Assembly (NCBI GenBank): GCA_934183045.1
Contig: CAKPRW010000001.1
Location: 1-63,450 of the forward strand
Reading direction: 5' to 3'
DNA length: 63,450 bases
Source of the DNA: an uncultured Clostridia bacterium
Lineage (GTDB): Bacteria; Bacillota; Clostridia; TANB77; CAG-508
Position numbers and translations under genes: made by a program. This document shows, one piece after another, positions 1,899 through 46,664 of this stretch (positions within the stretch are counted from its first letter, which is position 1; each line of letters opens with the position of its first letter). The notes beneath the pieces are model-generated. The model was not told where the DNA came from. It worked only from the letters and a program-made list of their open reading frames with translations, and did not search any database.

Positions 1899-2031
1899 CT
1901 TTTTATCTATTTAATCATATAAAAATATCATTTGTATATTGGTAATAATTTAAAAAATACCAAATGAGTAGACTCTTTTTAATGCCTATTCATTAGATAT
2001 TTTTTAAATTATTTTCTTCTATATATTAAAA

Positions 2032-3168: not shown

Positions 3169-3381
3169 AATATTACACCTCCAAAATATTGTTTCCAATA
3201 CTATTTTTTTTAAACTATCTTGCATAAAAAATAAGCAGATTTTAAATTATTTTTTATCTCTATTTAATCAAATTTATTTTTTCTACAATTTTCATCTTTA
3301 TTCCTCATTTTTTGCAAATTTATTTGATTTTTTTAGTGTTTATATATATAATCATAATAATAAATTTTAAAGGTGATATCT

Positions 3382-7674: not shown

Positions 7675-9729
7675 ATGAAAAAAAAGATTACTTCGTGTCT
7701 ATATAAAATTATAGCACTATATCTTGCTGTACCATCACTTATAGCATTTATACTATACTTTTTTCTACCTACTATTTTAAATTATCCTCCTGAAAGCATT
7801 GATAATCAATTTCAGTTGGATTTTGATGGTATAACATATACTCAACAATACATTTTATTAATTTCTTTAATTGTGTTATGCAGTTTAATTATATTGTTTA
7901 TTAGATCTTATAAAATGTATAAATGTTCAACAAAACTATCTGACGAGAACATCAAACTGTCTGAAGAAGAAACAATTTCAATGTTACTTAAAATAAGAGC
8001 ATATTGTTATAATACACCCTATCTACTATATTTCTTAGAAATACTTTTGCCATTAATATTTTTGCCTATTACTTTTATTTTAATAGATGCTTATACATTA
8101 ACAATTATAGAAATATGCTTAATGTATATATCTTGTTTTACACTTGCATCTGTTATAAGTTTTGTATTTTCTAAAACTGAATTTGGATATATATTAAACT
8201 TACTTCATGATATGTATCCAAATTTAATGGATAATATAGAACTAGAATATTCAAGGAAAAAGAGAGCTGGTATAAAATCTTTATCAGTAAAATTAATGTT
8301 ACAATTCTCTCCTCTAGTTCTTTTAACACTTATCCTTACATCATTAGTCGGATATGTACAAGCTGCTAAAAAAACTGGTGAAATATATTACTCATCATAT
8401 TATTCACTTATATCTGATTCCTTTAGTGGAACATTCTCTTCAAGAGATGAAGTAGAAAACAAGTTAAAAAGTATTTCATTATTAGATACATCTCACAAAT
8501 ATTTTATTATAGATAGCTCTGGAAATTATACAGTTTCAGACAATTCTAAATTACAACCATTTTTCATAAAGTACACTTTAGAAAAATCAGATACACAAAA
8601 TGGACATTCTTACGATTATTTTTGTTTAGATTCTGAAGGAATTTCATTAAAGTGTAATCTATCTGATGGTACTTATTGTTATGCTGGAATTATATATGAT
8701 ACTAGTCAACCAAACTTTTTAAAATTTATTTTAATATGTGATACTGTCTTATATTGTATAATATTTTTAATATTACTTTATGTTTCACATTCTTTGTCAG
8801 CAGAAATTAAAACTGTTTCAAAGAAATTAACTAACATAGCATCATCTAACAAAAATAATATAAATTTAAATAATAATTTAGTTGTTACTTCTGAAGATGC
8901 ACTAGCAGACCTTGCCTTAGCTTTCAATCTTACACAAAGCTTTACAAAAGATAACATTAATGAGTTGCAATCTAATCAAACAATGCTTATGGAAAGAGAA
9001 AGACTTGCTTCTCTAGGACAATTAATTGGTGGTATTGCTCACAATTTAAAAACACCAATAATGTCAATATCTGGTGCTGCAGAAGGGCTTAGCGACCTGA
9101 TTAAAGAATATGATTCTTCTATAGACGATCCAGAAGTAAACTCTCAAGACCATCATGATATTGCCAAAGATATGAATTCTTGGATAGTTAAAATAAGAGA
9201 ATATACTAGCTACATGTCTGATATTATAACAGCTGTTAAAGGTCAAGCTGTTACATTATCTGAGACAGATAATGTATCCTTTGATATAGAAGAATTAATT
9301 AAGAGAGTAGATATTTTAATGAAACATGAATTAAAAAATGCCTTAGTGTATTTAAATGTTTCTTTATCAGTACCTGAAAACACTAAATTAATTGGTGATA
9401 TTAATAGTTTGGTACAAGTTATTAACAATATGATTTCTAATTCAATTCAATCATATAACGGAAAACCTGAACAAAAAATAGATTTAAGTATAGAGCAAAA
9501 GAATAATAACTTAATTATATCTATTCAAGATTATGGATGTGGACTATCTGAAAAAGTTAAAGATAAGTTATTTAATGAGATGATTACAACAAAAGGAAAA
9601 AACGGAACAGGATTAGGATTATATATGTCTTATTCAACAATAAAAGCTCATTTCAATGGAAATATCACATTTGAATCAGAAGCTGGAAAAGGTACTACAT
9701 TCCACATTATATTGCCATTAAAAAAATAA
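7675..9729 (+). CDS. Membrane sensor histidine kinase
   Basis: Has several N-terminal TM segments, an H-box GGIAHNLKTP, and HATPase N/G boxes (NMISNSIQ, DYGCGL, GTGLGLY). Confidence 0.85.
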   Translation: MKKKITSCLYKIIALYLAVPSLIAFILYFFLPTILNYPPESIDNQFQLDFDGITYTQQYILLISLIVLCSLIILFIRSYKMYKCSTKLSDENIKLSEEETISMLLKIRAYCYNTPYLLYFLEILLPLIFLPITFILIDAYTLTIIEICLMYISCFTLASVISFVFSKTEFGYILNLLHDMYPNLMDNIELEYSRKKRAGIKSLSVKLMLQFSPLVLLTLILTSLVGYVQAAKKTGEIYYSSYYSLISDSFSGTFSSRDEVENKLKSISLLDTSHKYFIIDSSGNYTVSDNSKLQPFFIKYTLEKSDTQNGHSYDYFCLDSEGISLKCNLSDGTYCYAGIIYDTSQPNFLKFILICDTVLYCIIFLILLYVSHSLSAEIKTVSKKLTNIASSNKNNINLNNNLVVTSEDALADLALAFNLTQSFTKDNINELQSNQTMLMERERLASLGQLIGGIAHNLKTPIMSISGAAEGLSDLIKEYDSSIDDPEVNSQDHHDIAKDMNSWIVKIREYTSYMSDIITAVKGQAVTLSETDNVSFDIEELIKRVDILMKHELKNALVYLNVSLSVPENTKLIGDINSLVQVINNMISNSIQSYNGKPEQKIDLSIEQKNNNLIISIQDYGCGLSEKVKDKLFNEMITTKGKNGTGLGLYMSYSTIKAHFNGNITFESEAGKGTTFHIILPLKK

Positions 9730-9841
9730 TAAAAAAAGAAGAGTTATTATGTATAACTTTTCTTTTTTATTTTTTAAAAGTATTGCTTTTTTTCTTTTGT
9801 ATATATATAATACACTTAATTCTATCTAAGGAGGGATGATT

Positions 9842-29141: not shown

Positions 29142-31589
29142 TTATTCAATATCTGGTTTTAAAGTCTCTATACTTACTACTCTACCACCATCATTAGTTC
29201 TCATTAAAGTAACCCCTTGTGTTGATCTTCCTAATACACTAATATCTTTTACATTAATTCTAATTATTGTTCCTGTATCTGTTACTAGCATAACATCTTC
29301 ATCTTCATGTGCTACTCTTACTCCTACAATTTTTCCAGTTTTTGGTGTTATTTTATATGTAATTACACCTTTTCCACCTCTTATTTGTACTCTGTATTCA
29401 TCTAATTCTGTTCTTTTTCCAAATCCGTTTTCTGTAATTGCAAGTAATGTAGACTTATCTCCAGCTATTACTGATTCCATTCCTATTACTTCATCGTCAT
29501 CATCAAGTCTTATTCCTATAACACCTTGAGAAACTCTACCAATAGGTCTTACATCTTTTTCATCAAATGTAATACACATACCGTTTTTTGTTACTAATAC
29601 TATATTATCTTGTCCATCTGTTAATCTAACTTCTATTAATTCATCATTTTCCTTTAAAGTAATACCTTGTAAACCTGTTTTTCTTGTTGAGTTATATTCT
29701 GTTAAAGCTGTCTTTTTAATTAGTCCATTCTTTGTAGACATTAACAAGTATTTTCCCTCGGCAAAGTTTTGAATTGGAATAACTGCTGACACTTTTTCTC
29801 CTGGGTCTAAACTTAATAAATTAACGATTGCTGTTCCCTTAGCTGTTCTACCAGCTTCTGGAATCTCATAACCTCTTAATTTATATAATTTTCCTTTATT
29901 AGTAAAGAATAATATAGTATCATGAGTTGAAGCAATAAAGATTTGTTTAACAAAATCATCTTCTCTAGTAGTCATTCCTGTAATACCTTTTCCGCCTCTT
30001 TTTTGACTTCTATATGTATCAATTGGTAATCTCTTAATATATCCGAAATGTGTTAAAGTAATAACAGTTTGCTCTTCTTTTACTAAATCTTCAATATCAA
30101 TTTCTCCTTCAGCAGCTACAATTTTTGTCTTTCTTTCGTCACCAAATTTATCTCTTATTTCAATTAATTCTTCCTTAATTATGTCAAACACTAATCTTTC
30201 ACTACTTAAAATTTCTCTTAAGTGTGCTATTAACGCCATTAATTCATTATACTCATTTTCTATCTTTTCTCTTTGTAATCCTGATAATGTTTTTAATCTC
30301 ATATCAAGAATTGCTTGTGCTTGTATTTCAGATAAACCAAATCTTTCCATTAATCTTTCCCTAGCATCGTCATATGAAGAACGAATTATGTTAATAATTT
30401 CATCTATGTTGTCTAATGCTATCTTTAATCCTTCTAAAATATGAGCTCTAGCTAATGCTTTATCTAAATCAAATTGTGTTCTTCTTAAAATTACATCTTT
30501 TCTATGGTCTATATAACAATCTAAACATTGTCTTAAAGTTAATATTTTAGGTTCTCCATTTACTAATGCAAGCATTATAATACCAAAAGTTGTTTGCATT
30601 TGAGTATGCTTAAATAATTGATTTAAAACTACTTGTGCATTTGCATCTCTTTTTAATTCTATAACAACTCTTACTCTATCTTTTCTATCAGACTCATCTC
30701 TACATTCAGATATTCCTTCTACTTTCTTTTCTTTTGAAAGATCTGAAATAGTTTTAATTAAATTTGCTTTATTTACTTGGTATGGTAATGAAGAAACTAT
30801 TATTCTTTGTTTATTTCCACTCATTTCTTCTATTTCAGTTTCTGCTCTTAATGTAATTTTTCCTCTACCTGTTGTATAAGCTTGTTTTATTCCTTCCATT
30901 CCAAGAATGATACCTTCAGTTGGAAAGTCTGGACCTTTTATAACTGACATTAAATCTTCATCTGTAACTTCATCTTCATCAATGATTTTTATAATACCAT
31001 TAATAACTTCTGTTAAATTATGAGGTGGTATATTTGTTGCCATACCAACTGCTATTCCTGATGAACCATTAATTAAAAGTGCTGGTATTCTTGCTGGTAA
31101 TACCGTAGGTTCTTGTAATCTGTCGTCATAGTTTGGCATAAAGTTAACTGTATTTTTTTCTATATCTGTAAGCATGTATTCAGATATTTTTGACATTCTT
31201 GCTTCAGTATACCTCATTGCTGCGGCACCGTCTCCATCTACAGATCCGAAATTCCCATGTCCATCAATTAACATATATCTCATAGAGAAATCTTGTGCAA
31301 GTCTTACCATAGCATCATATACAGAACTATCTCCATGTGGATGATATCTTCCTAAAACAGATCCAACTGTATTTGCACATTTTCTATATGGTTTATCTGA
31401 TGTAATTCCATCTTCATGCATTGAATATAAAATTCTTCTATGTACAGGTTTTAAACCATCTCTTACATCTGGAAGTGCACGAGATACAATAACACTCATA
31501 GCATAATCTATATATGCTGTTCTCATCTCTTTTTCAATATCTCTTTCAATGATTTTTCCGTCGTTTCTTTCTTGTGGTCTATCTTCCAT
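29142..31589 (-). CDS. gyrA: DNA gyrase subunit A
   Basis: AMRYTE active-site Tyr region, the QRDR-like GRYHPHGDSSVYDAMV, and C-terminal beta-pinwheel repeats. Confidence 0.97.
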   Translation of the reverse strand: MEDRPQERNDGKIIERDIEKEMRTAYIDYAMSVIVSRALPDVRDGLKPVHRRILYSMHEDGITSDKPYRKCANTVGSVLGRYHPHGDSSVYDAMVRLAQDFSMRYMLIDGHGNFGSVDGDGAAAMRYTEARMSKISEYMLTDIEKNTVNFMPNYDDRLQEPTVLPARIPALLINGSSGIAVGMATNIPPHNLTEVINGIIKIIDEDEVTDEDLMSVIKGPDFPTEGIILGMEGIKQAYTTGRGKITLRAETEIEEMSGNKQRIIVSSLPYQVNKANLIKTISDLSKEKKVEGISECRDESDRKDRVRVVIELKRDANAQVVLNQLFKHTQMQTTFGIIMLALVNGEPKILTLRQCLDCYIDHRKDVILRRTQFDLDKALARAHILEGLKIALDNIDEIINIIRSSYDDARERLMERFGLSEIQAQAILDMRLKTLSGLQREKIENEYNELMALIAHLREILSSERLVFDIIKEELIEIRDKFGDERKTKIVAAEGEIDIEDLVKEEQTVITLTHFGYIKRLPIDTYRSQKRGGKGITGMTTREDDFVKQIFIASTHDTILFFTNKGKLYKLRGYEIPEAGRTAKGTAIVNLLSLDPGEKVSAVIPIQNFAEGKYLLMSTKNGLIKKTALTEYNSTRKTGLQGITLKENDELIEVRLTDGQDNIVLVTKNGMCITFDEKDVRPIGRVSQGVIGIRLDDDDEVIGMESVIAGDKSTLLAITENGFGKRTELDEYRVQIRGGKGVITYKITPKTGKIVGVRVAHEDEDVMLVTDTGTIIRINVKDISVLGRSTQGVTLMRTNDGGRVVSIETLKPDIE

Positions 31590-31624
31590 TTTTCTCCCTC
31601 TTTTCTTTATTTTTCTACATTTGT

Positions 31625-31653
31625 ATTATACTAAAATAGTATAAAATATGCAA
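31625..31653 (-). promoter_or_regulatory. Dedicated sigma-A-type promoter for gyrA
   Basis: On the minus strand: TTGCAT (31653-31648), a 17-nt spacer, then TATAAT (31630-31625), about 35 nt upstream of the gyrA ATG. Confidence 0.5.
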
Positions 31654-31709
31654 GTAAAAACCACTAAAAAGTAGAGATATCGGTTAAAACATTACATAAA
31701 AATATTGTC

Positions 31710-32432
31710 TTATTTTAATTTTTCTACCAATTCTAATTGTTCTTTACTTAAATTAAAATTTTGACCATTATTTTTTATTAAACTATGTAGCATTTCTATT
31801 GTTTTTGCTTCATTTATTGTTTTTTCTATTGGCGCAATATTGTTTAATTGTTTTTTTATTTTATTATATTCTTTTTCCATTCCTTCAAAATTTTTATTAT
31901 TAAAATACTCTTTCCAATTATCTATGTATTTATTTGTATATTCTATCGCTTCATATTGTTTATTAAATGTATTTTCTATATTACTTTCTATGCTATTTAA
32001 AATAGTATTCTTTCCCTGTTTTATTGTTTTAGCAATTGTATTATTAATTAATCCTTCTTTCCTTACCTTATCAACTACAGTATCCAATAAAGAAGACATT
32101 CCATCTATTAGTCCTCCTGTTTTTACAACCTCTTGCATTTGTGATACGGACTCAAAATTTCCAGTAAGAATGCCAACTGCGCTTTTTCCTAAATCAATTG
32201 TATCATCAATCGTCTTTGTAATCCCCTCCTTCAAACCATAATTTAATAAATTATCTTTTAAATTAATAACTTGATTATCTAAAAAATCTGGTAATACAGC
32301 TCTTATTCCCATATCTATTGCTGCATTAATTGTTTTTCCAAGAGTTGTTTCTAAAAATTGTTTTTGTGTTTCATTATTAATAGTATTATTTATTTCTATA
32401 TTATTGTCTTTTTCTAAATTATTTATTTCCAT
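31710..32432 (-). CDS. Hypothetical protein (helical, no recognisable motif)
   Basis: 240-aa ORF. ATG lies 6 nt after AGAAGGA. Amino-acid composition is normal, unlike the neighbouring array. Confidence 0.6.
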   Translation of the reverse strand: MEINNLEKDNNIEINNTINNETQKQFLETTLGKTINAAIDMGIRAVLPDFLDNQVINLKDNLLNYGLKEGITKTIDDTIDLGKSAVGILTGNFESVSQMQEVVKTGGLIDGMSSLLDTVVDKVRKEGLINNTIAKTIKQGKNTILNSIESNIENTFNKQYEAIEYTNKYIDNWKEYFNNKNFEGMEKEYNKIKKQLNNIAPIEKTINEAKTIEMLHSLIKNNGQNFNLSKEQLELVEKLK

Positions 32433-32449
32433 GTTATGTCCTTCTTTCT

Positions 32450-35400
32450 ATTTTTATTATTTTTTTATAATTAATTTTTCTTTTTTATAAAAATATAATT
32501 TATAAATTAATTATATTTTATAATCTAATAATTCTATATTTTTTATAATAATAATTTAATATATTTTTTATAAAAAAATATAAAATAATTAATTTATTAC
32601 AAAAATATCTTGCAAAATTCATAAAAATTTTAATAAAAAATTTTTCCATTTTTATTTATATACAATCTGATTTTCGACAATATGTAAACTTTTTTGATAT
32701 ATTTTTAAAGTCCTTTTATACTTCTCTGCTATCTTTCAAATACGTTTAATGCCTAATAGATTTTGATTTTAAAAATTAAAATTTGTTCTGTTTTTTCTAT
32801 ATTATTTCTAAAAAATTGATTGAAAATAAAAGTTTTGAGATAAATCTATATTTGATCAAAAGTTTATGATTTTCATAATTATATTTTTATATTAAAAATT
32901 ATAAATTTTTTATTTTATTATTTAACAATATTTTATTACTTTTACTTTTAATAATTACTAAATTTTCCTTTCTTCTATAATTTATTTTTATATAATTTTT
33001 TTAATTTAGTTTTTTATTAAATTATAATTTTATGAATTATTTTTTCATGCTCCTTAAATTTAACTTTTTGTTAATGCTATTTTTATATTAAATTATATTT
33101 TTTAATATTTTATTTATAAATTATTTAATTTTACAATTTTTATTTTATAATAATATAATTAATCAAGTAATTATATTTAAAATTTTAATATTTTAGATTT
33201 TTTGTTAATAATAATTTAAATATTTTTTTATTAAAATTAAAAATTATTTGTTAATTTCTAAAATATATTTTTAAAATTCATCATATTTTTTAATAAATTT
33301 TTCTTTTATCTTTAATACAAAACAACATGTGTCAGACAATATGTAAACCATTTTGACATATTTTTAATATCATCTTATATTTTTGCATTACTTCCTAAAT
33401 ATATTTAATGCCTAACAAATTTTAGTTTTAAGATTTTATATCTTATCTATTTTTTACATATTATTTTCAAAAAATTATTTAAAATGAAACTTTTTGAACA
33501 AATCAATACTGAATTAAAAATATTGGAATTTTTTTCAATTTATTTTCTTATTTTTAATTTTAAATTTTTCTCTTTTGTTTTTTTAATTATTTTTTTATAT
33601 TTTAAATTTATATTAAATATTTTTTATGTTTTAAAATTATTATTTTTATTATAGAATATTTTATATGTTTTTTTATCCTATTTTTATTATTTTATTTTAT
33701 AATTTTTATATAATTTATTATTTTTATTTTTTTACTTATAAATATTTTTATATTAATTATAATTTTATATTTCATTTATAAGTTATTTAATTTTACAACT
33801 TTATTTATGCTTTTTTATTTTTATAATATTAGAATAAATTTAGTATATTTTTTATTTATAGTAAAAAACATTATATCAATTTATAGAAAATATTTATAAA
33901 ATTCATAGAAATTATTATTAAAATATTTCTTGATTTTAGTCTCAATATATTCTTATTTTTGACAATATGTAAACTATTTAAATCTATTTAAAGTGCTTTT
34001 TAATATTTTTGTATAATTCTTCAAATACATTTAATGCCTAATAGTTTTGAATTTTTGAGTTTGTAATTTATAACAATTTTTCTATGTTTTTATAAAGATA
34101 TTGATTTATAGTAAAAATTTTAAGATAATGCTATACTATTAAAAAACTTTTTTGAAGTCTTTAATTTTCTTTTTTGATTTAATTTATAAGTTTTTTATTT
34201 TATTTTTTTATAATTATTGTTATTTTATATTTTAATAAAAAATATTTATTTTTTATTAGTAAATATTTTACATGTTTTTTATATTTTATATTTGTATTAT
34301 TTCTTTTTTTTAGTTATTATTGATTTATTATTTTTTAATTAACTTATTTTCTTATTATTTATTTTATATAATTTTTAAATTCGAATTTTTATTAATTAGT
34401 TTATTATATTAAATCATATTTTTAATATTTTATTTTCGACTTATTTATTTTTATAATTTAGATTTTTATAATATCAAATTTAATTTTTTAATCTTGTATT
34501 TTCATTAATAATAAATTTTATATTTTTTTACTAATTATAAAAAAATTGCTTATTAAAAATTTAAAATATATATTTAAAATTTTTAATACTTATATGCTTT
34601 TTTCTTTTTTATTCTTATTTCAATAGCATCCTTCTTTGGAAATATGTAAACCATTTTATATCTTTAAAAATTTCTTTTTATATTTTTTTCAATCTACCAA
34701 ACAGATTTAATGCCTAGTGAATATTAGTTTTTAAATTCTAAACTTTAGATACCTTTTCTTTATTTTTAAGATAATTTTGCTATATACTAAAAATTTTAAA
34801 TTAAATATATATTATATAAAAAATTTTTAAACTTTTATTTTAATTTTTATTTTCAAATTATTTTTTATTTATTTTTAATAATTTTTAATAATTTTTTATT
34901 CTTATTAAATCTTGAATAATTTTTTTATTTTATATTTTTTTGTGATAAATTTCTATTGCCAAATTTTTATTATTTAATTGTTTTTTTATGATTTTTTTAT
35001 TTTAATTTTTTATTAATTTATTTTTTTATATTAAATTATATTTTTAATATTTTATTTTCAAATTATTTATTTTTATTATTTATAATATTATAAATAATAA
35101 ACTAACAATTTTTTAAATATTGTATTTTTATTAATAATACTTTTAATATATTTTTTATTAATACAAAAAATCGTTTATCATTTTTTTATATTCTTCTAAA
35201 ATTTAAAGTAACTTTTAATAAAATTTTTTTTGATCCTTTAGTCAATATGATTTAATTATTAATAATATGTAAACCATTTTCACTTATTTTAAATATCTTT
35301 TTATACTTTTCCATAATTCTTCAAATAGATTTAACGCCTAATAGATTTCAATTTTTAAATTTAAAGTTTAGATTAATTTTTCTATGTTTTTATAAGAAAT

Positions 35401-36345
35401 CTAATATATAATAAAAATTTTGAAATAAATTTTTATAATTTTCTTTTTCAATCTTAATTTTAAATTTTTTATAATTATTATTTTATTTTTCTATTCTTAA
35501 TTAATTTTTTAAAAAAATTCAACATTATTATTTTTATAATTAAGTATTTGATATTTTTTGTATATGATTTATTTTTTATTAATATAAATTTTTTCAATTT
35601 TATTTTTTACTAATTACTTTTTTATATGATTTATTTTTTTTATCAATTAATATTTTAATATTATTTATAATTGCATATTTTATTTATAAATTATTTAATT
35701 TTATAATTCACTTTATAATTTCTATTTTTATAATATTAAAATAAATTTATTAATTATTTTTTATGTTTTTGAATTTTATATTTTATTAAAAATATTTTTA
35801 CTCTTTTTTTATTAATTATAGAAATTTTTATACTACTTTTTAAAATCTCCTTTCAAAATTTTTAATAAAACATTTATCTTTTTTATTTCACTATATCTTA
35901 ATTTTCTATAATATGTAAACTGTTTTTATACACTCTAAATGCTTTTTTATGTTTTTATATAATTTCTTGAATAGATTTAATGCCTAATAGATTTCAATTT
36001 TTAAATTCGAAGTTTAGATCAATTTTTCTATCTTTTTATAAAAAGTCTGATCTACAATAAAATTTTTGAAATAAATATATACTGAATAAAAAAATTTTTT
36101 TAACACCTTCAATTTTATTTTTTATTTAGTTTTTATGTTTTTTATTTTTATTTTTGTTTATTATTTCTATTTTATATTTATTATTTTTTTATTATTAAAT
36201 ATTTAATATATTTTTTATATTTAATAATATAAAGATTTCAAATAAAAAATTTTTTATCAATTTGATATTTAAAATTATTTTATAATTTTGGTGTTTTTAT
36301 ATTAAAATATTAATTAATTTTTATTTTAATAACAATTAATTATTT
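32450..36345 (-). repeat. Tandem array of six degenerate, ORF-less copies (period 623-679 bp) of the 3' two-thirds of gene 36346..37422
   Basis: AATATGTAAAC occurs at 32679, 33338, 33964, 34641, 35264 and 35910 (genic copy at 36589). TTTAAYGCCTA occurs at 32745, 33404, 34030, 34706, 35330 and 35976 (genic copy at 36655). No ORF of 60 aa or more exists in any frame. Minus-strand translation of unit 6 gives LLGIKSIQEII*KHKKAFRVYKNSLHII, against LLGIKDLNQFIIKYANSFSEQKNSLHIV in the gene. Confidence 0.85.
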
Positions 36346-37422
36346 TTATATTATATTATTCTTTATCCTTAATTTTTTTATTTTATTTTTCAAACCATTA
36401 TTTTTTAATAAATGAAATAATAATACTTTTATTTTGATAATTAATTTTATTTTATTAAAATTAATTATATTAGTTTTATGATTTTTTGAAATTTTATTTA
36501 TATTAATTGAATATTTTTTTAATGAACAGTCTAAAACATGTATATAAATCTTTGCACTTATTGAATATAAATTTACTTTGTTACCCACAATATGTAAACT
36601 GTTTTTTTGTTCTGAAAAGCTATTGGCGTATTTTATTATAAATTGATTAAGATCTTTAATGCCTAGTAAATTTTCATTTGTATATATAATAATATCTGTC
36701 GTTTGCATTATAATTTGTTTGAAAAAAGTTCTATTCTTACAATTTTTAATTCTAATAAATATAATATCAAATTTCTTTTTTTCTTTATCTAAAAAATTTT
36801 TAATTTCATTTTTGTTTTTTATTTTAAAATTATTATAATAATAATTTTTAATTTTTATATTTTGAGAATAATTTACATTAATATTTTTATTATTATTTAT
36901 ATTTATTATTAATATTTTTTTATTTATCAAATATTTAATAATTGTTTTTATAATTAAATCATTTTTATCAATTTCTTCTCCACATATTAATATTATTTTT
37001 TTATTTATATTTTTATTTAAATTATTATTTTTAATGTTTTCTTTATTTGATATTTTTTCATTTTTTAAAATATTAAATATTATACTATAATTAATGTTTT
37101 TTAATTGATATACTTTTTTCAACCCTATTTCTTTTAAATTGTCATATTGTTTTTTTTCATTATTTTTTAATATAATTATTATTTCTATTTTGTTATTAAT
37201 TTCTTTTATATGTTTCACTAATTTTTCTAATTTTATTTTTCCTGGTATTTTACTATTAATTATAATTGTATCTATGTTTTTATTTTTTTCTAATATTTCT
37301 ATAATTGCTTCCCTATATTGAATATCTTTACTTATTACCTCATATTCGTTTCTTTGTTTTAATAATTGATTAATCTGAGGATTATTTAGTGCTGTTACTA
37401 TCTTCTTCTTTTTTTCCTTCAA
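36346..37422 (-). CDS. Hypothetical K/N/I-rich protein, last gene of the island operon and parent of the tandem array
   Basis: TTG start lies 4 nt after GAAAGGAAG and overlaps the VirB4-like gene by 41 nt. The overall layout (N-terminal about 140 aa plus C-terminal about 215 aa) faintly recalls receiver-like plus ParA/CpaE-like proteins, but no Walker A is visible. Confidence 0.5.
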   Translation of the reverse strand: MKEKKKKIVTALNNPQINQLLKQRNEYEVISKDIQYREAIIEILEKNKNIDTIIINSKIPGKIKLEKLVKHIKEINNKIEIIIILKNNEKKQYDNLKEIGLKKVYQLKNINYSIIFNILKNEKISNKENIKNNNLNKNINKKIILICGEEIDKNDLIIKTIIKYLINKKILIININNNKNINVNYSQNIKIKNYYYNNFKIKNKNEIKNFLDKEKKKFDIIFIRIKNCKNRTFFKQIIMQTTDIIIYTNENLLGIKDLNQFIIKYANSFSEQKNSLHIVGNKVNLYSISAKIYIHVLDCSLKKYSININKISKNHKTNIINFNKIKLIIKIKVLLFHLLKNNGLKNKIKKLRIKNNII

Positions 37423-39211
37423 TAATCTTCCTTTCTAATTCAGAGCATTCTACCTTTGTTAATATATGATCTTCACTAACAAACATTAAGCACTCTCCTC
37501 TTTTTAAAGATTTAATTTCTATTTTCTCTTTTTCAGATAAATTAGAATATTCAGATAGAATTTTTATGTTCTCTTCTTCCAATGAGAAAAATGTTTTTAT
37601 GCTAGAATTATTTAATATACTTTTTCCATATGTTCCATTATCTAAGCTAAATATGTCAGAAATATCTTGAGTAATAGCTACCCCACTTCCACTGTATTTT
37701 CTTATAGTTTTAAAAATCTTATATATAAAACTAGCCACTTCTTTATTTGATGTTACTCCTATTAGTCTCCATATTTCATCTAAATATATTGCTTTTTTGT
37801 CCTTTCTATTTTCTTTTATTTTATCCCAAAAAATATCTGTAAAAAGATACATTCCATATTTTAAATTTTCTTCACCTAAATCATAAACATCAGCAATTAT
37901 TAAACTATTATCTAATTCTATGTTTGTATAATTGTTAAAAAATTTCATCGATCCCTTTACAAAAGGAATTAATTTAATTTGAAACCTTTTTGTTCTTTTA
38001 TCATTTCCAAGTATATTATATAAATCTTCTAGTATAGGCATATCTTTTGAATTTTTAAATATTTTCTTATTGTTTTTATTCTTTTCTTTATATAAAGTAT
38101 TATCATCAAATGTAATATTTTTTTCTTTATAAGTTTCTATTATTTTTTCCTCTATTAAAGCCTTTTCTTCTTCATCTAATTCTCCAAAAATCAAGTTGAA
38201 AAATCCTATTAATTTTCCTATTTTAGTAGCTAAATATCCACTCTCTCCATCTTCTATACTTTCTTTTCTAATATCTAAAATATTTATATATGTATTTGAA
38301 TTAGGTCCTATTTTTATTTGAGTTCCTTTTAATTCTTTACATAAATTACTATATTCTCTTTCTGGATCAATAACGTATTGCGTTATACCAAGTAACTTAT
38401 ACCTTAATATTAGTAGCTTCGTATAAAACGATTTTCCTGCTCCACTTGTACCAAAAATACACATATTCGCATTCTTATATTTTTGAGTATCATATCTGTC
38501 TATGAAAACTAAAGAATTATTATATATATTTGTTCCTATAAATATACCTTCCTGATCAAAAATCGTTGATGAAATGAAAGAATATGTTGAAATTAGTCCA
38601 CTTGTTAGTATATTTCTTCTAGCTGATCTTTTTATGAAATCTGGATTATTCATTAATGGTAAACATGATTTAAATAATTCTTCTTGTCTAAAATTTGCTC
38701 TAATTGTTTGCATTCCTTTACTTTGTGTTATTCCTTCAACCTTATTCAGAAAATACTCTAATTCCTTTATATCTTCTGAATATAAATTTATGTAAATATA
38801 TAAAAAATAAATATCTTCATTATTTATTTGAATTTCTTTTCTTATATATTTAGCATCATTATAAGTAAATGCAGCTATATCAATATCCTGTCTGTTTTGA
38901 TTTCCTTCTTTTAACTCCACACCTACATTTCCAATATGATAGGTTAAATCTTTAATTGTTTTATATGGATCTTGTTTTTCATAAAAAATTGATATATTCA
39001 TATTAATATTTGTATCTACTAATGTTTTTAACAATAAATCTGTTTGTTCTCTATAGTAATTCACTATAATTAATCCTGAATAATATAAATTATCAATTTC
39101 TAAATATTTTGGATTTTGAACATTTATATATGATGGACATATTTCATCTTTTAAGTTTAATACTCCATCTAGAAATTTATTTTCTTTCTTATTTAATTTA
39201 ATATTTTTTAT
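37382..39211 (-). CDS. VirB4-like T4SS ATPase (island paralogue)
   Basis: Walker A FGTSGAGKSF and Walker B AIYLDEIWRL. The frame is open up to stop 39245-39247. AAAGGAGGT is followed 6 nt later by ATA 39211 (ATT at 39202). The extension DEICPSYINVQNPKYLEIDNLYYSGLIIVNYYR aligns with ELIAPAGIDASHVDHLEIISNTKRYARSFFVSNLPR of ORF 60215. The track start GTG 39064 has no SD. Confidence 0.75.
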   Translation of the reverse strand: MKNIKLNKKENKFLDGVLNLKDEICPSYINVQNPKYLEIDNLYYSGLIIVNYYREQTDLLLKTLVDTNINMNISIFYEKQDPYKTIKDLTYHIGNVGVELKEGNQNRQDIDIAAFTYNDAKYIRKEIQINNEDIYFLYIYINLYSEDIKELEYFLNKVEGITQSKGMQTIRANFRQEELFKSCLPLMNNPDFIKRSARRNILTSGLISTYSFISSTIFDQEGIFIGTNIYNNSLVFIDRYDTQKYKNANMCIFGTSGAGKSFYTKLLILRYKLLGITQYVIDPEREYSNLCKELKGTQIKIGPNSNTYINILDIRKESIEDGESGYLATKIGKLIGFFNLIFGELDEEEKALIEEKIIETYKEKNITFDDNTLYKEKNKNNKKIFKNSKDMPILEDLYNILGNDKRTKRFQIKLIPFVKGSMKFFNNYTNIELDNSLIIADVYDLGEENLKYGMYLFTDIFWDKIKENRKDKKAIYLDEIWRLIGVTSNKEVASFIYKIFKTIRKYSGSGVAITQDISDIFSLDNGTYGKSILNNSSIKTFFSLEEENIKILSEYSNLSEKEKIEIKSLKRGECLMFVSEDHILTKVECSELERKIIEGKKEEDSNSTK

Positions 39212-39258
39212 CTCTCTACCTCCTTTTAAAATATTATTTAATAATTAATTTTTTATAT

Positions 39259-39858
39259 TTATTTTCTTTCATATATAGTATTTTTTATAATATTATTTAA
39301 ATTTTTTCTTGTGTTAAAAAATGAATTAAATAAATTTTTTATTTCTTTTTTACTATTAATTTCCATGACAAAATTTCCACATCTAAATAATGATTCTTTT
39401 ATTTTAAAATATTTTTCTTTTAAATCATTCTTAATAATTTCTTCATAATTATTAAATTGATTTTTTTTATTTATTTGATTTGATATGATGATATAAAAAT
39501 TTTTAGAAGAAGATTTCTTACTTAGATTAATTTCATTTATATATTTTATATAATCTTGTGATATTTCTTGTAAATATCTATTTTGCTTTTTATTTATATT
39601 TTTTTCTATATTTGAAATATGTGGATTTAAATTTTCCTTATTACTTTGAATTAAAATTTGAATATTAAAATTACATGTTTTTAAAAAAGTTTTGTAAGAA
39701 TTTAAAATAGCTTCTTTTTCTAAATCAGACTTTAAATTATAATTAATAGGAATTATTTTTAATATTTTAATATATCTATTATCTTTTAATTTTATAATTC
39801 CACTATTATAAATTTTTTCTATTGGTAACCATTCTTGAGTCGTTTTTTTCTTAATAAT
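39259..39858 (-). CDS. T4SS-associated protein, paralogue of the soluble part of ORF 59042..60190 (missed by the ORF track)
   Basis: A 199-codon open frame bounded by TAA 39873-39871 and TAA 39261-39259, translated by hand. It has no ATG/GTG/TTG until codon 160. GGAGGTG is followed 5 nt later by ATT-ATT (39858/39855). IPINYNLKSDLEKEAILNSYKTFLKTCNFNIQILIQS and KNFYIIIS match GINYDLMSGLEKNSVEQGFLQFLNTLRYPIQLYIQT and KNYYVIISY. Confidence 0.65.
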   Translation of the reverse strand: MIKKKTTQEWLPIEKIYNSGIIKLKDNRYIKILKIIPINYNLKSDLEKEAILNSYKTFLKTCNFNIQILIQSNKENLNPHISNIEKNINKKQNRYLQEISQDYIKYINEINLSKKSSSKNFYIIISNQINKKNQFNNYEEIIKNDLKEKYFKIKESLFRCGNFVMEINSKKEIKNLFNSFFNTRKNLNNIIKNTIYERK

Positions 39859-39876
39859 TTCACCTCCATTTTTTGT

Positions 39877-39905
39877 ATTTTACATTATTTTACAATTGTT
39901 GTCAA
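39877..39905 (-). promoter_or_regulatory. Consensus sigma-A-type promoter of the island operon
   Basis: On the minus strand: TTGACA (39905-39900), a 17-nt spacer, then TAAAAT (39882-39877). GGAGGTG begins about 10 nt downstream of the -10 element. Confidence 0.6.
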
Positions 39906-40028
39906 CCAGTTTTCATCTACTTTTTTCGACATTAGAATTATGTAATTTTTTATTTTTATAAATTTTTAATATTTTTTGAATATTTTTTTCTTTTTTGTTC
40001 ATAATAAAGATATAAGGTTAATAATAGT

Positions 40029-40402
40029 TGAGCCAAGAGTAATAATAGATATTAATTTGTTTATTATTATTCGGACAAAGATGTATTATGGTGTATTTAA
40101 TATATTATAATATGTCGGCGAGAAGAGTATATTATGTGTTTGTAGGCTATATTTTTATTTATATTTTTAATCTTTATTAATTATTTATATATGGTCAAAT
40201 TATATGTAATATATTCGAGCTAAGATTATTCTTATATCTAGTTATTTCAAATGGTTGTTATTAGTCCTATATAGGATGAATACAGTTATTTATGGTGTAT
40301 TAATGGTCGAGCAAATGATTAATATATTTGGTAGAAGGCTTATTTATATAGTAATATATATTAGGTTTGAATATTAGGTATATTAGTTTTAGCTAAGATT
40401 AT
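40029..40402. repeat. Non-coding stretch with degenerate direct repeats (iteron-like G/C islands in an AT background)
   Basis: TCGRGCWAAGAKTAWTAT-like words occur at 40029, 40071, 40115, 40215, 40307 and 40388. The exact 12-mer TTATGGTGTATT occurs at 40086 and 40290. Confidence 0.4.
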
Positions 40403-40419
40403 TATTAGCTTTATAGATT

Positions 40420-40452
40420 AATGGCAGATAAATTATATATTTATCTGCCATT
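40420..40452. terminator. Hairpin just downstream of gyrB
   Basis: AATGGCAGATAA, a 9-nt loop, TTATCTGCCATT. The T-run is present only on the plus-strand side. Confidence 0.5.
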
Positions 40453-40459
40453 AAATTTT

Positions 40460-42388
40460 TTAAATATCTAGATTCTTTACATATTTTGCATTTTTTTGTA
40501 TAAATTCTCTTCTTGGTTCAACTTCATCCCCCATTAATAAAGTAAATATTTCATCTGCTTTTATAGCATCATCCATTGTAACTTTTATTAATATTCTCTT
40601 TTCTGGATCCATTGTTGTTTCCCATAATTGTTCTGGATTCATCTCTCCTAAACCTTTATATCTTTGTAATCCTAGTTGTTCTCTAGTTATTCCCTTTTCT
40701 TCTAATTCTTTATATGCTTTTTCCAAATCCTCATCTGTATAACAATAAAGATCTTCCATTCCTTTTTTAGATAGTTTATATAATGGTGGTTGCGCTAGAT
40801 ATACATTTCCATTTTCAATTAAAGGTCTCATATATCTAAAGAAGAAAGTTAACAATAAAGTTCTAATATGCGCACCATCAACATCGGCATCAGCCATTAT
40901 AATTACTTTTCCATATCTTATTTTTGTTATATCAAAATCAGGACCAATTCCAGCTCCTACAGCTAATATAACAGGATTTAATTTGTCATTTCCATAAATT
41001 TTATCAGCTCTTGCTTTTTCAACATTTAACATTTTTCCCCATAAAGGTAAAATTGCTTGGAATTTTCTGTCTCTTCCCTGTTTTGCACTTCCTCCTGCAG
41101 AATCTCCCTCAACTATATAAACTTCACATTCATCTGCATTTTTACTACTACAATCAGCTAATTTACCTGGTAATGTTGATGTTTCTAATGAGTTTTTCTT
41201 TCTTACTAATTCTCTTGCTTTTCTAGCAGCTTCTCTTGCACGAGATGCGCTAATACATTTCTCTAATATTGATTTTGCTACATTTGGATTTTCTTCTAAG
41301 AATGTTGATAAAGATTCATTTACCATACTTTGTACAACACCTGTTACTTCACTATTTCCTAATTTTGTTTTAGTTTGTCCTTCAAATTGAGGTTCCTTTA
41401 CCTTTACTGATACTACTGCTGTAATTCCTTCTCTTATGTCTTCCCCTTGTAAATTGTTATCTTTTTCTTTTAAGATATTATGACTTCTAGCATAATCATT
41501 AAATACTTTTGTTAATGATCTTTTAAATCCTTCTAAGTGTGTACCACCTTCTATTGTGTTTATGTTATTTACAAATGTATATATATTTTCAGAATAACTT
41601 GATGTATATTGTATAGCAATTTCTACTGGTACTTCTCCATTTTTTTCTATATAAATAGGAGTTTTATTCAATTTTTCTTTATTTTTATTTAAAAATTCTA
41701 CAAATGAAATTAAACCACCTTCAAAACAAAATTCAGCTTTTTTAGGAGTTTCTTCCCTTTTGTCTTCAATTGTTATTTTTAAACCTTTTGTTAAAAATGC
41801 TATTTCTCTAAATCTTTTTTCTAAAACTTCATATTCATAATCAAGACTTTCAAAAATTGTATCATCTGCTAAAAATCTAACTTTTGTTCCTGTTCCTTTT
41901 GCTTCCCCTATTACTTCTAGTTTTTGAGTAGTCTTTCCTTTTTCAAATTTCATTTGATATAGTTTTCCATCTCTTTTTATCATTACTTCAGTCCATGTAG
42001 ATAAAGCATTAACTACTGATGCACCAACTCCATGAAGACCTCCTGATACTTTATATCCACTATCTCCACCAAATTTTCCACCTGCATGTAATACTGTATA
42101 TACTGTTTCCGCAGTAGATATTTTTGTTTTAGGATGTATTTCTACTGGTATCCCTCTCCCATTATCTTCTACACTAATAATATTTCCAGGTTCTATTACT
42201 ACATTTATTTCTGTACAATATCCAGCTAATGCTTCATCAACACCATTATCGACAATTTCATATACACAATGATGTAATCCTCTTACAGAAGTACTTCCTA
42301 TATACATACCTGGTCTTTTTCTTACTGCTTCAAGACCTTCTAATACTTGTATTTGTTCTGCCCCATATTTATGATCATATTTTTCCAT
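40460..42388 (-). CDS. gyrB: DNA gyrase subunit B
   Basis: GHKL ATPase motifs ([22 protein letters not shown]), Toprim [20 protein letters not shown] and [12 protein letters not shown]. Confidence 0.97.
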
Positions 42389-43859: not shown

Positions 43860-44978
43860 CTATTCTTCTTTTAATCTTATTGGTAAAATCATATATGTAT
43901 AATCATTGTTATCTATTGACTTAATTAAACATGGAGATATACTTGTTCCAAATTCTATATATACCTCTTCATCTTCTATTGCTTTTAAACTATCTAAAAA
44001 ATATTTAGGATTAAATCCAGCTTCTAAGTTTTTACCTTCTGTTGCAACATATAATTCTTCTTTTGCATCTCCAGTTTGATTTGTACAAGAAATTGTTACT
44101 TTTCCTATATCAACATTTACTTTTACTGGATATTTTTTTTCTTTTTCTATTGAAGATGATGAAATCAAACTAATTCTTTCAAAACTATCTTGTATATTAT
44201 TTTTGCTAACTTTCACTCTTGTCTCCCAATTACTTGGTATAACATTTTTATAATTTAAAAATTCTCCATCTAAAATTCTTGTTACTATTTTACAGTTGTC
44301 CATTTCAAATAATGCTTGATTTTTTGAAATACCTATTTTTATTGTTTCAAATGAATCTGATATTATTTTATTTACTTCATTTAATGTTTTTCCTGGTATT
44401 ACAGCACTAAAATTATTTGTTTGTTTATTTAAATAAATACTTCTTAATGCTAATCTAAAACCATCAACTGCAACTAAATTTAATTTATTGTTTTCCACTT
44501 CGAATAAACAACCTGTGAATATCGGTCTACTTTCTTCTGTGCTAACTGCAAATATTGTTTTTCTTATCATATTTTTTAAAATATTTTGATCAATTTCTAT
44601 AGAATTTTCTACTTCTATCTTTGGTAATTCTGGAAATTCTTCTGGATTCATAGTAGCTAATTTATATAAAGAACCTTCACATTCTATTTCTAATAAATTT
44701 TTTTCATTTAAAGTTATACTTATTTCTGTATCTGGTAATTTTCTTATTATTTCACTAAACATTATTGCATTTACAACTGTACTTCCTTGTTCTTTTACAT
44801 CACATTCCATTACATATTCTATACCAATTTCTAAATCATATGTTGTTAATTTTATTTCATTTTCATTTGTTTGAATTAATATTCCTTCTAGTATAGGCAT
44901 TGTTGTTTTAGATGCAACTCCTTTTACTACGGAATTTATTGCTTTTAGTATTTTGTCTTTGTAACAAACAATTTTCAT
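43860..44978 (-). CDS. dnaN: DNA polymerase III beta sliding clamp
   Basis: 372 aa in the canonical position after dnaA, with three-domain clamp length and motifs (e.g. PILEGILI, LVAVDGFRLA, ILPIRL C-terminus). Confidence 0.95.
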   Translation of the reverse strand: MKIVCYKDKILKAINSVVKGVASKTTMPILEGILIQTNENEIKLTTYDLEIGIEYVMECDVKEQGSTVVNAIMFSEIIRKLPDTEISITLNEKNLLEIECEGSLYKLATMNPEEFPELPKIEVENSIEIDQNILKNMIRKTIFAVSTEESRPIFTGCLFEVENNKLNLVAVDGFRLALRSIYLNKQTNNFSAVIPGKTLNEVNKIISDSFETIKIGISKNQALFEMDNCKIVTRILDGEFLNYKNVIPSNWETRVKVSKNNIQDSFERISLISSSSIEKEKKYPVKVNVDIGKVTISCTNQTGDAKEELYVATEGKNLEAGFNPKYFLDSLKAIEDEEVYIEFGTSISPCLIKSIDNNDYTYMILPIRLKEE

Positions 44979-45299: not shown

Positions 45300-46664
45300 T
45301 TATTGTTTCCCATTTATGATAATGTTTTTCACACTATCCACAATTAGCTTGGTATTATTTTTTTCTTTGGTTTCTTTTTCTATTTTTCTACAAGCATGCA
45401 TTACGGTTGAATGGTCTCTTCCCCCAAACTCAGTTCCTATTTGTGGATAAGACATATTTGCAATTATTCTACATAGATACATTGCAATTTGTCTTGGAAA
45501 AGCAACTTCATTAGATCTCTTATTTCCTGATAGATCATCTTTATTTATGCTAAAATATTTTGCAACAGTTTCTTTTATAAAGTCACAAGAGATAACTTTT
45601 TCATTTTCATATTTAAATTCATTTATAGTTTTTTCAGCTAATTCTATAGTAATTGGACTATGTGTTAGTGATGCGATTGCAACTACTTTATTAAAGACTC
45701 CTTCTAATTCTCTAATATTTGAATCGATTTTATTAGCTATATTTGAAAGGATAAAGTCATCAATAACTATATTTTCTTCTTGTGCTTTTTTTCTTAAAAT
45801 TGCTAAACGTGTTTCGTAATCTGGACATGAAATATCAGCAAGTAGTCCCCATTCAAATCTAGATTTTAATCTATCTTCTAGAAATGGTATATCCCTAGGT
45901 GGTTGATCACTTGAAATGATAATTTGTTTAGCATTATCATATAAAGTATTGAATGTATGGAAAAATTCTTCTTGTATTCTTTCTTTTCCAGCTATAAACT
46001 GTATATCATCTATTAATAAAACATCAATATTTCTATATTTGTTTCTAAATACTTCGTTTTTATTATCTTTAATTGCATTTATTAATTGATTAGTAAATTT
46101 TTCTGATGTTACATATAAAACATTTGCATTTCTATTGTCCTCAATTATTTTATTTCCAATAGCATTCATTAAGTGAGTTTTTCCTAAACCTACACCACCA
46201 TATAAAAATAAAGGATTATAAGATTTTGCGGGTTCCTTCCCTACTGCTAATGCAGCAGCATATGCAAATCTGTTATTATCACCCACAACAAAGGTTTCAA
46301 ATGTGTATTTAGAATTTAAAGTAGACATATTTGTTTTTATTTCTTTTGTAGAAGAATTTGAGATATTATTGTCTGAAATAATATCTTCTGTAATTGTTGT
46401 ATCATTTTCTTCTTTTGATAAATCTATTACAGAATAAGTCCAATCTTTATTTGTTATATATCTTAAAGTGTTGAGAATTAAACTTCTATACTTGTTTTCT
46501 ATAAAATCTTTATGGAATTCAGAAGTTGTTGTAAATACGATATTATTATCTTCTATACTTCTTATATCTAATGGCATAATCCATGTATCATAAGATATTT
46601 TAGTAACTTCAGGCTTTAATAATTCTCTTATTTTTTCGATTAATTCTTCTTTTTCTATTGCCAC
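45300..46664 (-). CDS. dnaA: Chromosomal replication initiator DnaA
   Basis: AAA+ Walker A GGVGLGKTHL, LLIDDIQF, and the domain IV HTH ...RDHSTVMHACRKIE. GTG start follows AAAGGATGA. Confidence 0.97.
   Translation of the reverse strand: MAIEKEELIEKIRELLKPEVTKISYDTWIMPLDIRSIEDNNIVFTTTSEFHKDFIENKYRSLILNTLRYITNKDWTYSVIDLSKEENDTTITEDIISDNNISNSSTKEIKTNMSTLNSKYTFETFVVGDNNRFAYAAALAVGKEPAKSYNPLFLYGGVGLGKTHLMNAIGNKIIEDNRNANVLYVTSEKFTNQLINAIKDNKNEVFRNKYRNIDVLLIDDIQFIAGKERIQEEFFHTFNTLYDNAKQIIISSDQPPRDIPFLEDRLKSRFEWGLLADISCPDYETRLAILRKKAQEENIVIDDFILSNIANKIDSNIRELEGVFNKVVAIASLTHSPITIELAEKTINEFKYENEKVISCDFIKETVAKYFSINKDDLSGNKRSNEVAFPRQIAMYLCRIIANMSYPQIGTEFGGRDHSTVMHACRKIEKETKEKNNTKLIVDSVKNIIINGKQ

Follow-up and report, generated by a model that had tools for sequence, protein, structure and literature searches.

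The window analysed here is a 63,450-nucleotide (nt) stretch of DNA from an uncultured Clostridia bacterium, and all coordinates are positions in this window. According to the list of open reading frames (ORFs), its gyrase genes gyrB (40460–42388, minus strand) and gyrA (29142–31589, minus strand) are separated by a gap of 8,870 bp (31590–40459), which extends from the gyrB stop at 40460 to the gyrA start at 31589 and contains four genes of a type IV secretion system (T4SS) module, here called g1 to g4, together with a structured RNA element and a tandem array. This DNA is probably not an insertion but a vertically inherited, functional chromosomal module of an uncultured clade of gut Clostridia with a GC content of ~25%. 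Read from gyrB along the minus strand, the gap opens with a hairpin, after which come 430 bp of unusual composition, a predicted promoter, g1, g2, g3, six repeats of ~650 bp, g4, the promoter-like sequence TTGCAT-17-TATAAT, and gyrA. We propose that it comprises two divergently transcribed units: an RNA gene on the plus strand and an operon of g1 to g4. The GC content amounts to ~25% in the window, 29.5–30% in the gyrase genes, 15.4% in the gap, and 10.2% at 32450–36340. A first-pass annotation of the same DNA had placed gyrB and gyrA ~8.9 kb apart and had described the DNA between them as far more AT-rich than either gene. Both statements hold, and the layout is the same in two independent metagenome assemblies. 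The gene dnaA (45300–46664) lies 6 kb from g1 and 10 kb from an array of pilin genes described below, and the GC skew turns at ~47 kb. Codes such as L033 denote compared loci or contigs.

The genes g1 and g2 are predicted to encode a single VirB4 in two pieces, a TrsD-like protein that corresponds to the N-domain and a TrsE-like motor. The larger part, g2 (37382–39211, minus strand), codes for a VirB4/TrsE-like ATPase of 609 aa. It had been recognized as such, with intact Walker A and B motifs, from the letters alone, and matches in Pfam, NCBIfam, and PDB agree: P-loop_TraG with 66.4 bits (cut-off 25.8), AAA_10 with 53 bits, and DUF87 in Pfam; positions 178–729 of 752 of the "VirB4-like conjugal transfer ATPase, CD1110 family" in NCBIfam (E=1.6e-83), at 281 bits and hence below the equivalog cut-off of 325; and the VirB4 structure 4ag5 in PDB (E=3e-42). 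Walker A reads GTSGAGKS, and Walker B reads IYLDE. The smaller part, g1 (39259–39858, minus strand), codes for a TrsD/TraD-like protein of 199 aa that matches positions 1–148 of the CD1110-family VirB4 (E=3.6e-10) and TrsD (NF041427, E=9.5e-7), both under the curated cut-offs. Because g1 covers positions 1–148 of this family and matches TrsD, and g2 covers positions 178–729, g1 would be the equivalent of a detached VirB4 N-terminal domain. The same split recurs at 59042–62170, where an ORF of 382 aa is followed by one of 651 aa, each 26% identical to its counterpart in the gap (E=6e-36 for the second VirB4 against g2). The homology of g1 to the ORF at 59042, which had been noted before as that of an accessory gene, is thereby put at 26% identity with E=7e-10. 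In TrsD–TrsE of pGO1/pSK41 and TraD–TraE of pIP501, conjugative plasmids of Gram-positive bacteria, a VirB4 without its N-terminal domain is likewise directly preceded by a small homologue of that domain. The module described here differs from these plasmid systems in being chromosomal and, apparently, vertically inherited. A single operon of the plasmids combines the relaxase and oriT with a lytic transglycosylase and VirB8-like genes, whereas the window shows none of them, and no plasmid VirB4 is more than 35.5% identical to g2.

At the position where their relatives start, both g1 and g2 lack an ATG, GTG, or TTG. Instead, ATT (39858) follows GGAGGTG in g1 and ATA (39211) follows GGAGGT in g2, the GGAGGT being perfect in both and thus a strong Shine–Dalgarno sequence. 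The first canonical start of g2 is a GVG-type GTG at 39064. A canonical start is likewise absent from 13 of 64 distinct g1 orthologues and from 15 of 53 distinct g2 orthologues, among them those of L087, L093, L106, L116, and L166, and noncanonical initiation seems to be tolerated in the clade.

The gene g3 (36346–37422, minus strand) starts with a TTG that overlaps the end of g2 and codes for a K/N/I-rich protein of 358 aa, whose N-terminus is an atypical (pseudo-)receiver domain and whose C-terminus is ParA/MinD-like, degenerate, and devoid of Walker A. In Pfam, it yields a weak match to Response_reg. The phosphoacceptor Asp is replaced, IIINSK standing in the place of the acceptor strand as read from the sequence. 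In the L033 orthologue, Walker A is deviant but intact (GPNGVGKS), and the protein scores above the Pfam threshold of CbiA (MinD/ParA). In the window, the ATPase part is predicted to be degenerate and to have lost Walker A, because GEEIDKNDL stands at that position. In BLASTP between species, only the N-terminal ~65 residues align significantly; C-terminal homology between species was dropped for this reason, and since the C-terminus does not align, the ParA/MinD assignment in the window is drawn from the L033 orthologue and from the reading of motifs. Overall, g3 is judged to be a fast-evolving, degenerating gene. Its domain order, an atypical receiver followed by ParA/MinD, resembles that of TadZ/CpaE of Tad pili, as do the replaced phosphoacceptor Asp and the deviant Walker A of the L033 orthologue. 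This likeness is one of domain architecture and not a search match; unlike TadZ/CpaE, g3 goes with a T4SS and not with CpaF/TadA, and its ATPase domain is degenerate here.

Between g3 and g4, six tandem units of 624–679 bp each occupy 32450–36340 on the minus strand. They had been described as a 3.9 kb relic array, which is borne out: the units align in register to the ParA-like 3′ portion of g3 (codons ~106–351 at most) and follow one another at spacings of 679, 646, 624, 676, 626, and 659 bp, the first of which is the distance from the copy in g3 itself to unit 1. As judged by tblastn, the peptide pattern "...NLLGIK...N(S/G)LHI(V/I)..." occurs in frame in each unit, with stop codons throughout. 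Because g3 peptide motifs and stop codons share the frame in every unit, the units are read as dead copies of the ParA-like half of g3. A reading as silent cassettes, akin to those of antigenic variation, was rejected, as stop codons fall into the conserved core of every unit and g3 is cytoplasmic. The array is confined to this species: it is identical or nearly so in other strains and absent from all other species fetched, and in the closest relatives, g4 follows g3 after 25–190 bp. The 3′ half of g3 would, hence, have been amplified six times in tandem in this species and have decayed to 10% GC, extending the gap from ~5–6 kb to 8.9 kb. Other species carry different ultra-AT stretches and ~500-bp repeats elsewhere in the module, from which tandem duplication followed by decay seems to be recurrent in the clade.

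Two motifs stand out in this array. TAGGC(A/G)TTAAA and GTTTACATATT, ~55 nt apart at constant spacing, do not vary among the six relics and g3, and the copies are otherwise only 60–74% alike; of the 140 alignment columns that hold any G or C, 5 are invariant, and all 5 fall inside the two motifs. The pair TAGGCRTTAAA...GTTTACATATT is found on the minus strand at 35986–35910, 35340–35264, 34716–34641, 34040–33964, 33414–33338, and 32755–32679, with the source copy in g3 at 36665–36589. Together with the near identity of the array between strains and with one of the window's only two TGTCGAA heptamers (32673–32679), which falls in the last unit and 240 bp ahead of g4, this pattern would suit a functional array, for example, of spaced protein-binding sites or of promoters, one of which now drives g4. 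We regard such a function as doubtful, since the array is found in this species only, its relatives having g4 directly after g3, and since its GC content of 10.2% equals that at third codon positions (GC3) of genes, a level to be expected of DNA that evolves neutrally in this genome. The in-frame stops in every unit and the lack of a conserved RNA fold in the relics (consensus energies of −18.7 and −21.7 kcal/mol on the two strands) also speak against it, and the different ultra-AT tandem repeats at other positions of the module suggest a general tendency to duplicate AT-rich DNA. Apart from the two invariant motifs, the array is mostly neutral debris, and only g3 and its six relics are truly decaying.

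The last gene before gyrA is always g4 (31710–32432, minus strand), which codes for a clade-specific protein of 240 aa without a known domain. It had been called an orphan, which is not borne out: there are 3,979 homologues, none with a Pfam domain, and the identity in relatives is 47–71%. An AlphaFold2 model from a shallow alignment of 25 sequences, with homologues all at least 73% identical, is all-helical at low confidence (pLDDT 52.6). Thus modelled, g4 is best described as a clade-specific, putatively helical protein.

The operon of g1, g2, g3, and possibly g4 would be driven by a predicted promoter at 39877–39905 on the minus strand, TTGACA-17-TAAAAT. Proposed already in the first pass as a consensus promoter, it is the best promoter-like site of the region, matching 11 of 12 positions, and its TTGACA is kept at this position in relatives; the total of promoter-like sites (108) does not differ from that in shuffled sequences (112 ± 8), and scans inside the array are uninformative. 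The promoter claimed for gyrA itself, TTGCAT-17-TATAAT (31625–31653, minus strand), fares less well: it was read by eye, its −35 element matches TTGACA at 3 of 6 positions, and the promoter scan missed it. An operator-like repeat at 39915–39931 on the minus strand precedes the −35 element of the operon promoter by ~10 nt and consists of TGTCGAA (39931–39925) and a degenerate AGTAGAT (39921–39915). In many related species, among them L088, L011, L104, L119, and L033, TGTCGAW-N3-TGTCGAW is found ~10 nt upstream of TTGACA, as in TTTGTCGAATTTTGTCGATG of L088, TTGTCGAATATTGTCGAACG of L011, and ATGTCGAAATTTGTCGAAC of L033. Tandem 0A boxes (TGNCGAA, ~10 bp apart, near −35) are known from the abrB and spoII promoters of B. 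subtilis. We take the tandem TGTCGAA repeat to be akin to such Spo0A boxes, as the heptamer and the 10-bp phasing match this consensus, and we infer that the operator binds a response regulator, most likely Spo0A. The gene spo0A is not in the 63 kb window.

Next to gyrB, a structured RNA of ~430–450 nt with promoter, core fold, and terminator is predicted on the plus strand (39976–40462). Its sigma-70-type promoter would be formed by a −35 element TTGAAT (39976–39981), an 18-nt spacer, and a −10 element CATAAT (40000–40005); of 89 unique sequences, 58 have TTG(A/T)AT-18 nt-(C/T/A)ATAAT at exactly 7–8 nt ahead of helix 1. The core fold (40012–40414) features an 18-pair closing helix, pairing ~40012 with ~40414, around five hairpins, and a GAGCNAA-type junction leads into each of them. 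The loop of the best-conserved hairpin is GYAA (GNRA-type), and many G–U pairs are invariant. The terminator hairpin (40418–40454), with its T-run on the plus strand, would serve both the RNA gene and the convergent gyrB; it is the only terminator-like site in the region, and its stem shows compensatory changes at 9–10 of 15 pairs across species (A3/A5). The element features a GC content of 21.8% compared with ~10% for neutral DNA here, and its nucleotide identity across nine species is 77–91%, although the flanking genes reach a pS (proportion of synonymous differences) of 0.4–0.6.

The fold is strand-specific. For nine sequences, RNAalifold yields −128 kcal/mol and 149 pairs on the plus strand, 48 of them with compensatory changes, versus −30.7 kcal/mol and 70 pairs on the opposite strand. 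A second fold, based on 60 sequences less than 93% identical, has consensus energies of −182.8 kcal/mol on the plus strand and −72.6 kcal/mol on the opposite strand, and again contains 149 pairs, with 95.4% of cells paired. In this alignment, 97 of the 149 pairs are changed on both sides, compared with 59 ± 3 in shuffles and 50–62 with partners slid by 1–3 columns; counted by cells, the numbers are 850 compared with 236 in shuffles and 144–206 with slid partners. Examples of covarying pairs are AU:30/UA:27, UA:37/CG:19, AU:37/GC:18, and CG:23/UA:17/UG:9/AU:7. A hydrophobic ORF of 40 aa in the spacer between gyrB and g1 (40255–40377) was rejected as a protein despite its apparent conservation. 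The element is taken to be noncoding because in-frame stops in the flanks are conserved, one species interrupts the ORF, a ribosome-binding site is absent, and substitutions fall mostly at second codon positions.

Rfam 15 (4,227 families) has no match at E≤1 over 31000–41000, and for 39950–40480 at E≤10 it gives only chance matches to the terminator hairpin. A literature search found no described counterpart. With its length of hundreds of nucleotides, its multihelix fold with extensive covariation, and its narrow range within Bacillota, the element resembles OLE, ROOL, GOLLD, and raiA RNAs; it differs from them by the missing Rfam match, by the five hairpins that each follow a GAGCNAA junction inside one closing helix, and by its fixed place between gyrB and a T4SS operon. 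The predicted structure is well supported by this covariation, and the element is a candidate for a new, previously undescribed class of large structured RNAs. It occurs once per locus, is absent from L033 and L013, and was not found in viral contigs or plasmids. The strand-specific fold, which would equally be possible for single-stranded DNA, the presence of a type IV coupling protein (T4CP), and the constant position beside the T4SS operon would also fit an active chromosomal conjugation system in which the T4SS transfers chromosomal DNA and the 430-nt element is a single-stranded DNA structure (oriT or single-strand origin) that serves in this transfer and not an RNA gene. This we hold to be unlikely. 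The sigma-70-type promoter at a fixed 7–8 nt from helix 1 and the intrinsic terminator with a T-run on the same strand point to transcription, as opposed to a DNA structure; the invariant G–U pairs and the GNRA-type loop, the absence of a relaxase among the scanned window ORFs, and the absence of the element from viral contigs and plasmids argue in the same direction. For the RNA gene, the fixed position between gyrB and the T4SS operon, divergent from the latter, is the only functional lead. We suggest tentatively that the RNA may be coupled functionally to a domesticated, origin-proximal T4SS, perhaps as regulator, scaffold, or cargo, both being switched on together by Spo0A-like signalling in this abundant Clostridia lineage of the human gut.

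The module is conserved in related species. Relatives were found by a gyrB scan of one genome per species followed by tblastn, and L087 and L088 by way of VirB4 homologues; their NCBI records are labelled Clostridia. In L010, L033, L087, and L088, whose gyrB is 83–96% identical, the gap between gyrB and gyrA measures 5.1–9.2 kb and contains g1, VirB4, g3, and g4 in this order. The order recF-gyrB-[RNA]-g1-VirB4-g3-g4-gyrA is kept in at least 120 metagenome contigs, wherever these are long enough, and in several species-level metagenome-assembled genomes (MAGs); among these contigs, gyrB is present in 106, g1 in 77, VirB4 in 56, and gyrA in 15. The identity of g2 is 58–90% in relatives, and that of VirB4 goes down to 58% across the metagenome contigs. 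The ratios of nonsynonymous to synonymous substitution rates (dN/dS), determined according to Nei–Gojobori for the window versus four species, are 0.05–0.18 for g2, 0.04–0.17 for gyrB, 0.07–0.26 for dnaA, 0.11–0.29 for recF, 0.10–0.44 for g1, 0.19–0.40 for g4, and 0.27–0.78 for the N-terminus of g3. Purifying selection on g2 is, hence, comparable to that on the housekeeping genes gyrB, dnaA, and recF. GC3 is 7–13% in g1 to g4 and 8–11% in gyrB, gyrA, and dnaN, and the lower GC content of g1 to g4 sits at the first and second codon positions. The low GC content is, therefore, not a foreign signature, since GC3 equals that of core genes and the first two positions reflect the amino acid composition of K/N/I-rich proteins.

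The gyrB of the window is 57–69% identical to that of outgroup loci, most of which are Bacillota, Clostridia included, and some of which come from spirochaetes or further phyla. Among the 66 informative outgroup loci, gyrA is at most 200 bp from gyrB in only 35, the gap exceeds 1 kb in 9, and there is no gyrA within 5 kb or more in 14; in L013, the next outgroup with a gyrB identity of 69%, neither gyrA nor T4SS genes follow gyrB. To call the separation of gyrB and gyrA unusual, as the first-pass annotation did, is, hence, overstated, and the picture of an insert that uncouples the gyrase genes is misleading, as relatives carry conserved genes in the same gap, essentially the observation that the annotation itself had named as one that would refute it. 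Of the two alternatives that it had raised, a retained functional module is supported, and a decaying fragment of a conjugative element is not.

The latter alternative, an integrative and conjugative element (ICE) or plasmid fragment that integrated between gyrB and gyrA and is now eroding, draws on the T4SS-type genes, on the degenerate g3 followed by its six dead copies, on the missing canonical starts of g1 and g2 and the frameshift of g1 in L088, and on the very low GC content. It is already largely refuted and very improbable: gene order is kept across many species and at least 120 contigs, dN/dS of g2 equals that of housekeeping genes, GC3 is that of core genes, and a 609-codon ORF stays intact where neutral DNA has ~10% GC. 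The nearest plasmid VirB4 is only 35.5% identical to g2, and the module was not found in plasmid or viral collections. No relaxase or integrase is present among the ~35 window ORFs scanned against Pfam, a search that covers these 63 kb, and no flanking repeats were seen; a patchy distribution, the synteny being fixed in the clade, and a foreign composition, as judged by GC3, are missing as well. A misjoin at 31.6–40.5 kb, for which one could cite the difficulty of assembling ultra-AT DNA and the many related MAG contigs that break just after gyrB, has a negligible probability and is ruled out by two independent ENA assemblies from different samples (ERZ28614370 and ERZ27287382), which span the whole gap, array included, in identical layout at 99.6–99.9% identity to the window, and by dozens of other contigs that span the homologous gap. 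Since so many related contigs stop at this point, AT-rich DNA at the locus is suggested to break assemblies. In L088 (gyrB 93% identical), stretches of 8–12% GC occur at 1950–4320, 8480–10000, and 12000–15290; the first separates dnaN from recF (2.4 kb), the second g1 from VirB4 (1.5 kb, with tandem repeats of ~500 bp), and the third VirB4 from g4 (3.4 kb).

The vertically inherited module in the gap appears to be part of a larger system, as two further T4SS clusters flank oriC on the plus strand. Cluster A (23936–27007) lies beyond gyrA and contains genes for a VirD4-like coupling protein of 506 aa, a VirB2-like pilin of 109 aa, a weakly VirB6/TrbL-like protein of 292 aa, and a 100-aa ORF; it is syntenic in L087 and L088. 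The coupling protein ORF (23936–25456) matches TrwB_AAD_bind with 30.7 bits (cut-off 20.5) and TraG-D_C with 25.2 bits (cut-off 22). Cluster C (56770–62170), on the other side of oriC, contains genes for four tandem VirB2-like pilins, a PrgI/VirB3-like protein, a TrsD-like protein of 382 aa with a transmembrane segment, and the second VirB4 of 651 aa. The four tandem pilins (56770–58387) are divergent and have 134, 128, 144, and 171 aa; the fifth (25484–25813) is a neighbour of the coupling protein gene. Monoderm T4SSs seldom have pilins of the VirB2 type, which are typical of the system of Patescibacteria. A Peptidase_M23 gene is found at 789–1898.

The chromosomal T4SS of Patescibacteria consists of VirB4, TrsD, PrgI, a VirB6-like protein, and arrays of VirB2-like pilins (PF18895/PF04956), with the T4CP apart from virB4 and without a relaxase (Microb Genom 2025, PMC12102498). 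It is derived from MPF-FATA, adjoins dnaA, dnaN, rnpA, and rpmH, and is thought to have been co-opted for a nonconjugative role, being essential for epibiotic growth in one strain (PMC12102498). As far as their sequences tell, the three clusters of the window closely resemble this relaxase-less, oriC-proximal system. Shared features are VirB4 with an adjacent TrsD, the putative PrgI/VirB3-like and VirB6-like proteins, the tandem divergent VirB2-like pilins, the separation of the T4CP gene from virB4, the lack of a relaxase, here among the scanned window ORFs, the location next to dnaA/dnaN/rnpA/rpmH at the replication origin, and a small, AT-rich host genome. The differences are that the host is labelled Clostridia and not Patescibacteria, that there are two paralogous split VirB4 sets, and that the genes are interleaved with gyrB and gyrA; furthermore, a receiver-ParA-like gene, g4, the structured RNA, and the TGTCGAA operator are present here, none of which is reported from Patescibacteria. 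A paper on pilins of TANB77 (PMC11680825) was set aside as a match, as it concerns a Tad/CpaF pilus and not the T4SS module, and no link was found to a paper on reduced-genome Clostridia (PMC12306168).

In the mechanism that we propose, g1 to g4 and the two clusters that flank oriC would form one relaxase-less T4SS of the MPF-FATA class, the monoderm conjugation type, to which the other clusters would contribute the coupling protein, the VirB6-like and PrgI/VirB3-like proteins, the five VirB2-like pilins, and the second split VirB4. The operon would be driven by TTGACA-17-TAAAAT under the control of a response regulator, possibly Spo0A, bound to the tandem TGTCGAA-type operator just upstream of the −35 element, and the RNA gene by its own sigma-70-type promoter, with the terminator hairpin in common with the convergent gyrB. 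The role of the T4SS would be other than plasmid or ICE conjugation, namely cell–cell contact or the exchange or uptake of macromolecules, as proposed for Patescibacteria. The structured RNA, the tandem TGTCGAA operator, and the nature of g1 as a detached VirB4 N-terminal domain had all been missed by the first-pass annotation.

Several points weigh against this interpretation. Translation of g1 and g2 in this species is predicted to depend on ATT and ATA as start codons, because canonical ones are absent, and g1 is frameshifted in one relative, L088. The RNA is missing in the L033 sublineage, which keeps the four genes; it is, hence, not indispensable to them. The promoters, the RNA transcript, and the operon structure are predictions, and the assignment to Spo0A follows from the resemblance of a motif. 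Two of the wider T4SS assignments lie below the Pfam cut-offs, PrgI with 22.2 bits (cut-off 27) and TrbL/VirB6 with 16.7 bits (cut-off 25.9), and no VirB8-like or VirB1-like protein and no CHAP/SLT hydrolase is recognized among the scanned window ORFs. A relaxase could lie elsewhere in the genome, of which 63 kb were inspected. Lastly, pure neutral decay does not explain the two invariant motifs of the relics.

Other features of the window can be appreciated around the module. Between cluster A and gyrA (27086–29070, plus strand), there are genes for a DnaD/DnaB_2-domain protein of 325 aa, a 200-aa ORF, and a 99-aa ORF, which are syntenic in relatives; the 99-aa ORF has weak similarity to the IstB/DnaA ATPases and is possibly the remnant of a helicase loader. 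In the 5′ part of dnaN (44748–44868), the two other strains, L001 and L002, share 14 substitutions relative to the window within 120 bp, with the surrounding kilobases being nearly identical, a pattern suggestive of a short recombination tract. In L001, differences are also dense over 49.7–52.3 kb (mnmE/mnmG). At 3373–7659 (plus strand), a single-module gene of the nonribosomal peptide synthetase type codes for 1,428 aa with condensation, adenylation, thiolation, and terminal reductase domains, which stands out in a small genome of 25% GC; it is followed by genes for a histidine kinase and a receiver-HD response regulator.

Relaxase-less T4SSs at the origin have been recognized only recently, in Patescibacteria, and the same architecture would here be under strong selection in widespread gut Clostridia. 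Its occurrence suggests a convergent or shared domestication of the monoderm conjugation machine, and the module of Clostridia would provide a second system for asking what such machines transport. An RNA with a fixed genomic partner is rare and makes the function of the RNA testable, and the tandem 0A-type operator suggests a specific hypothesis on regulation. The relic array illustrates how a genome of 25% GC turns duplicated coding DNA into filler of 10% GC, which would also explain the assembly breaks at this locus.

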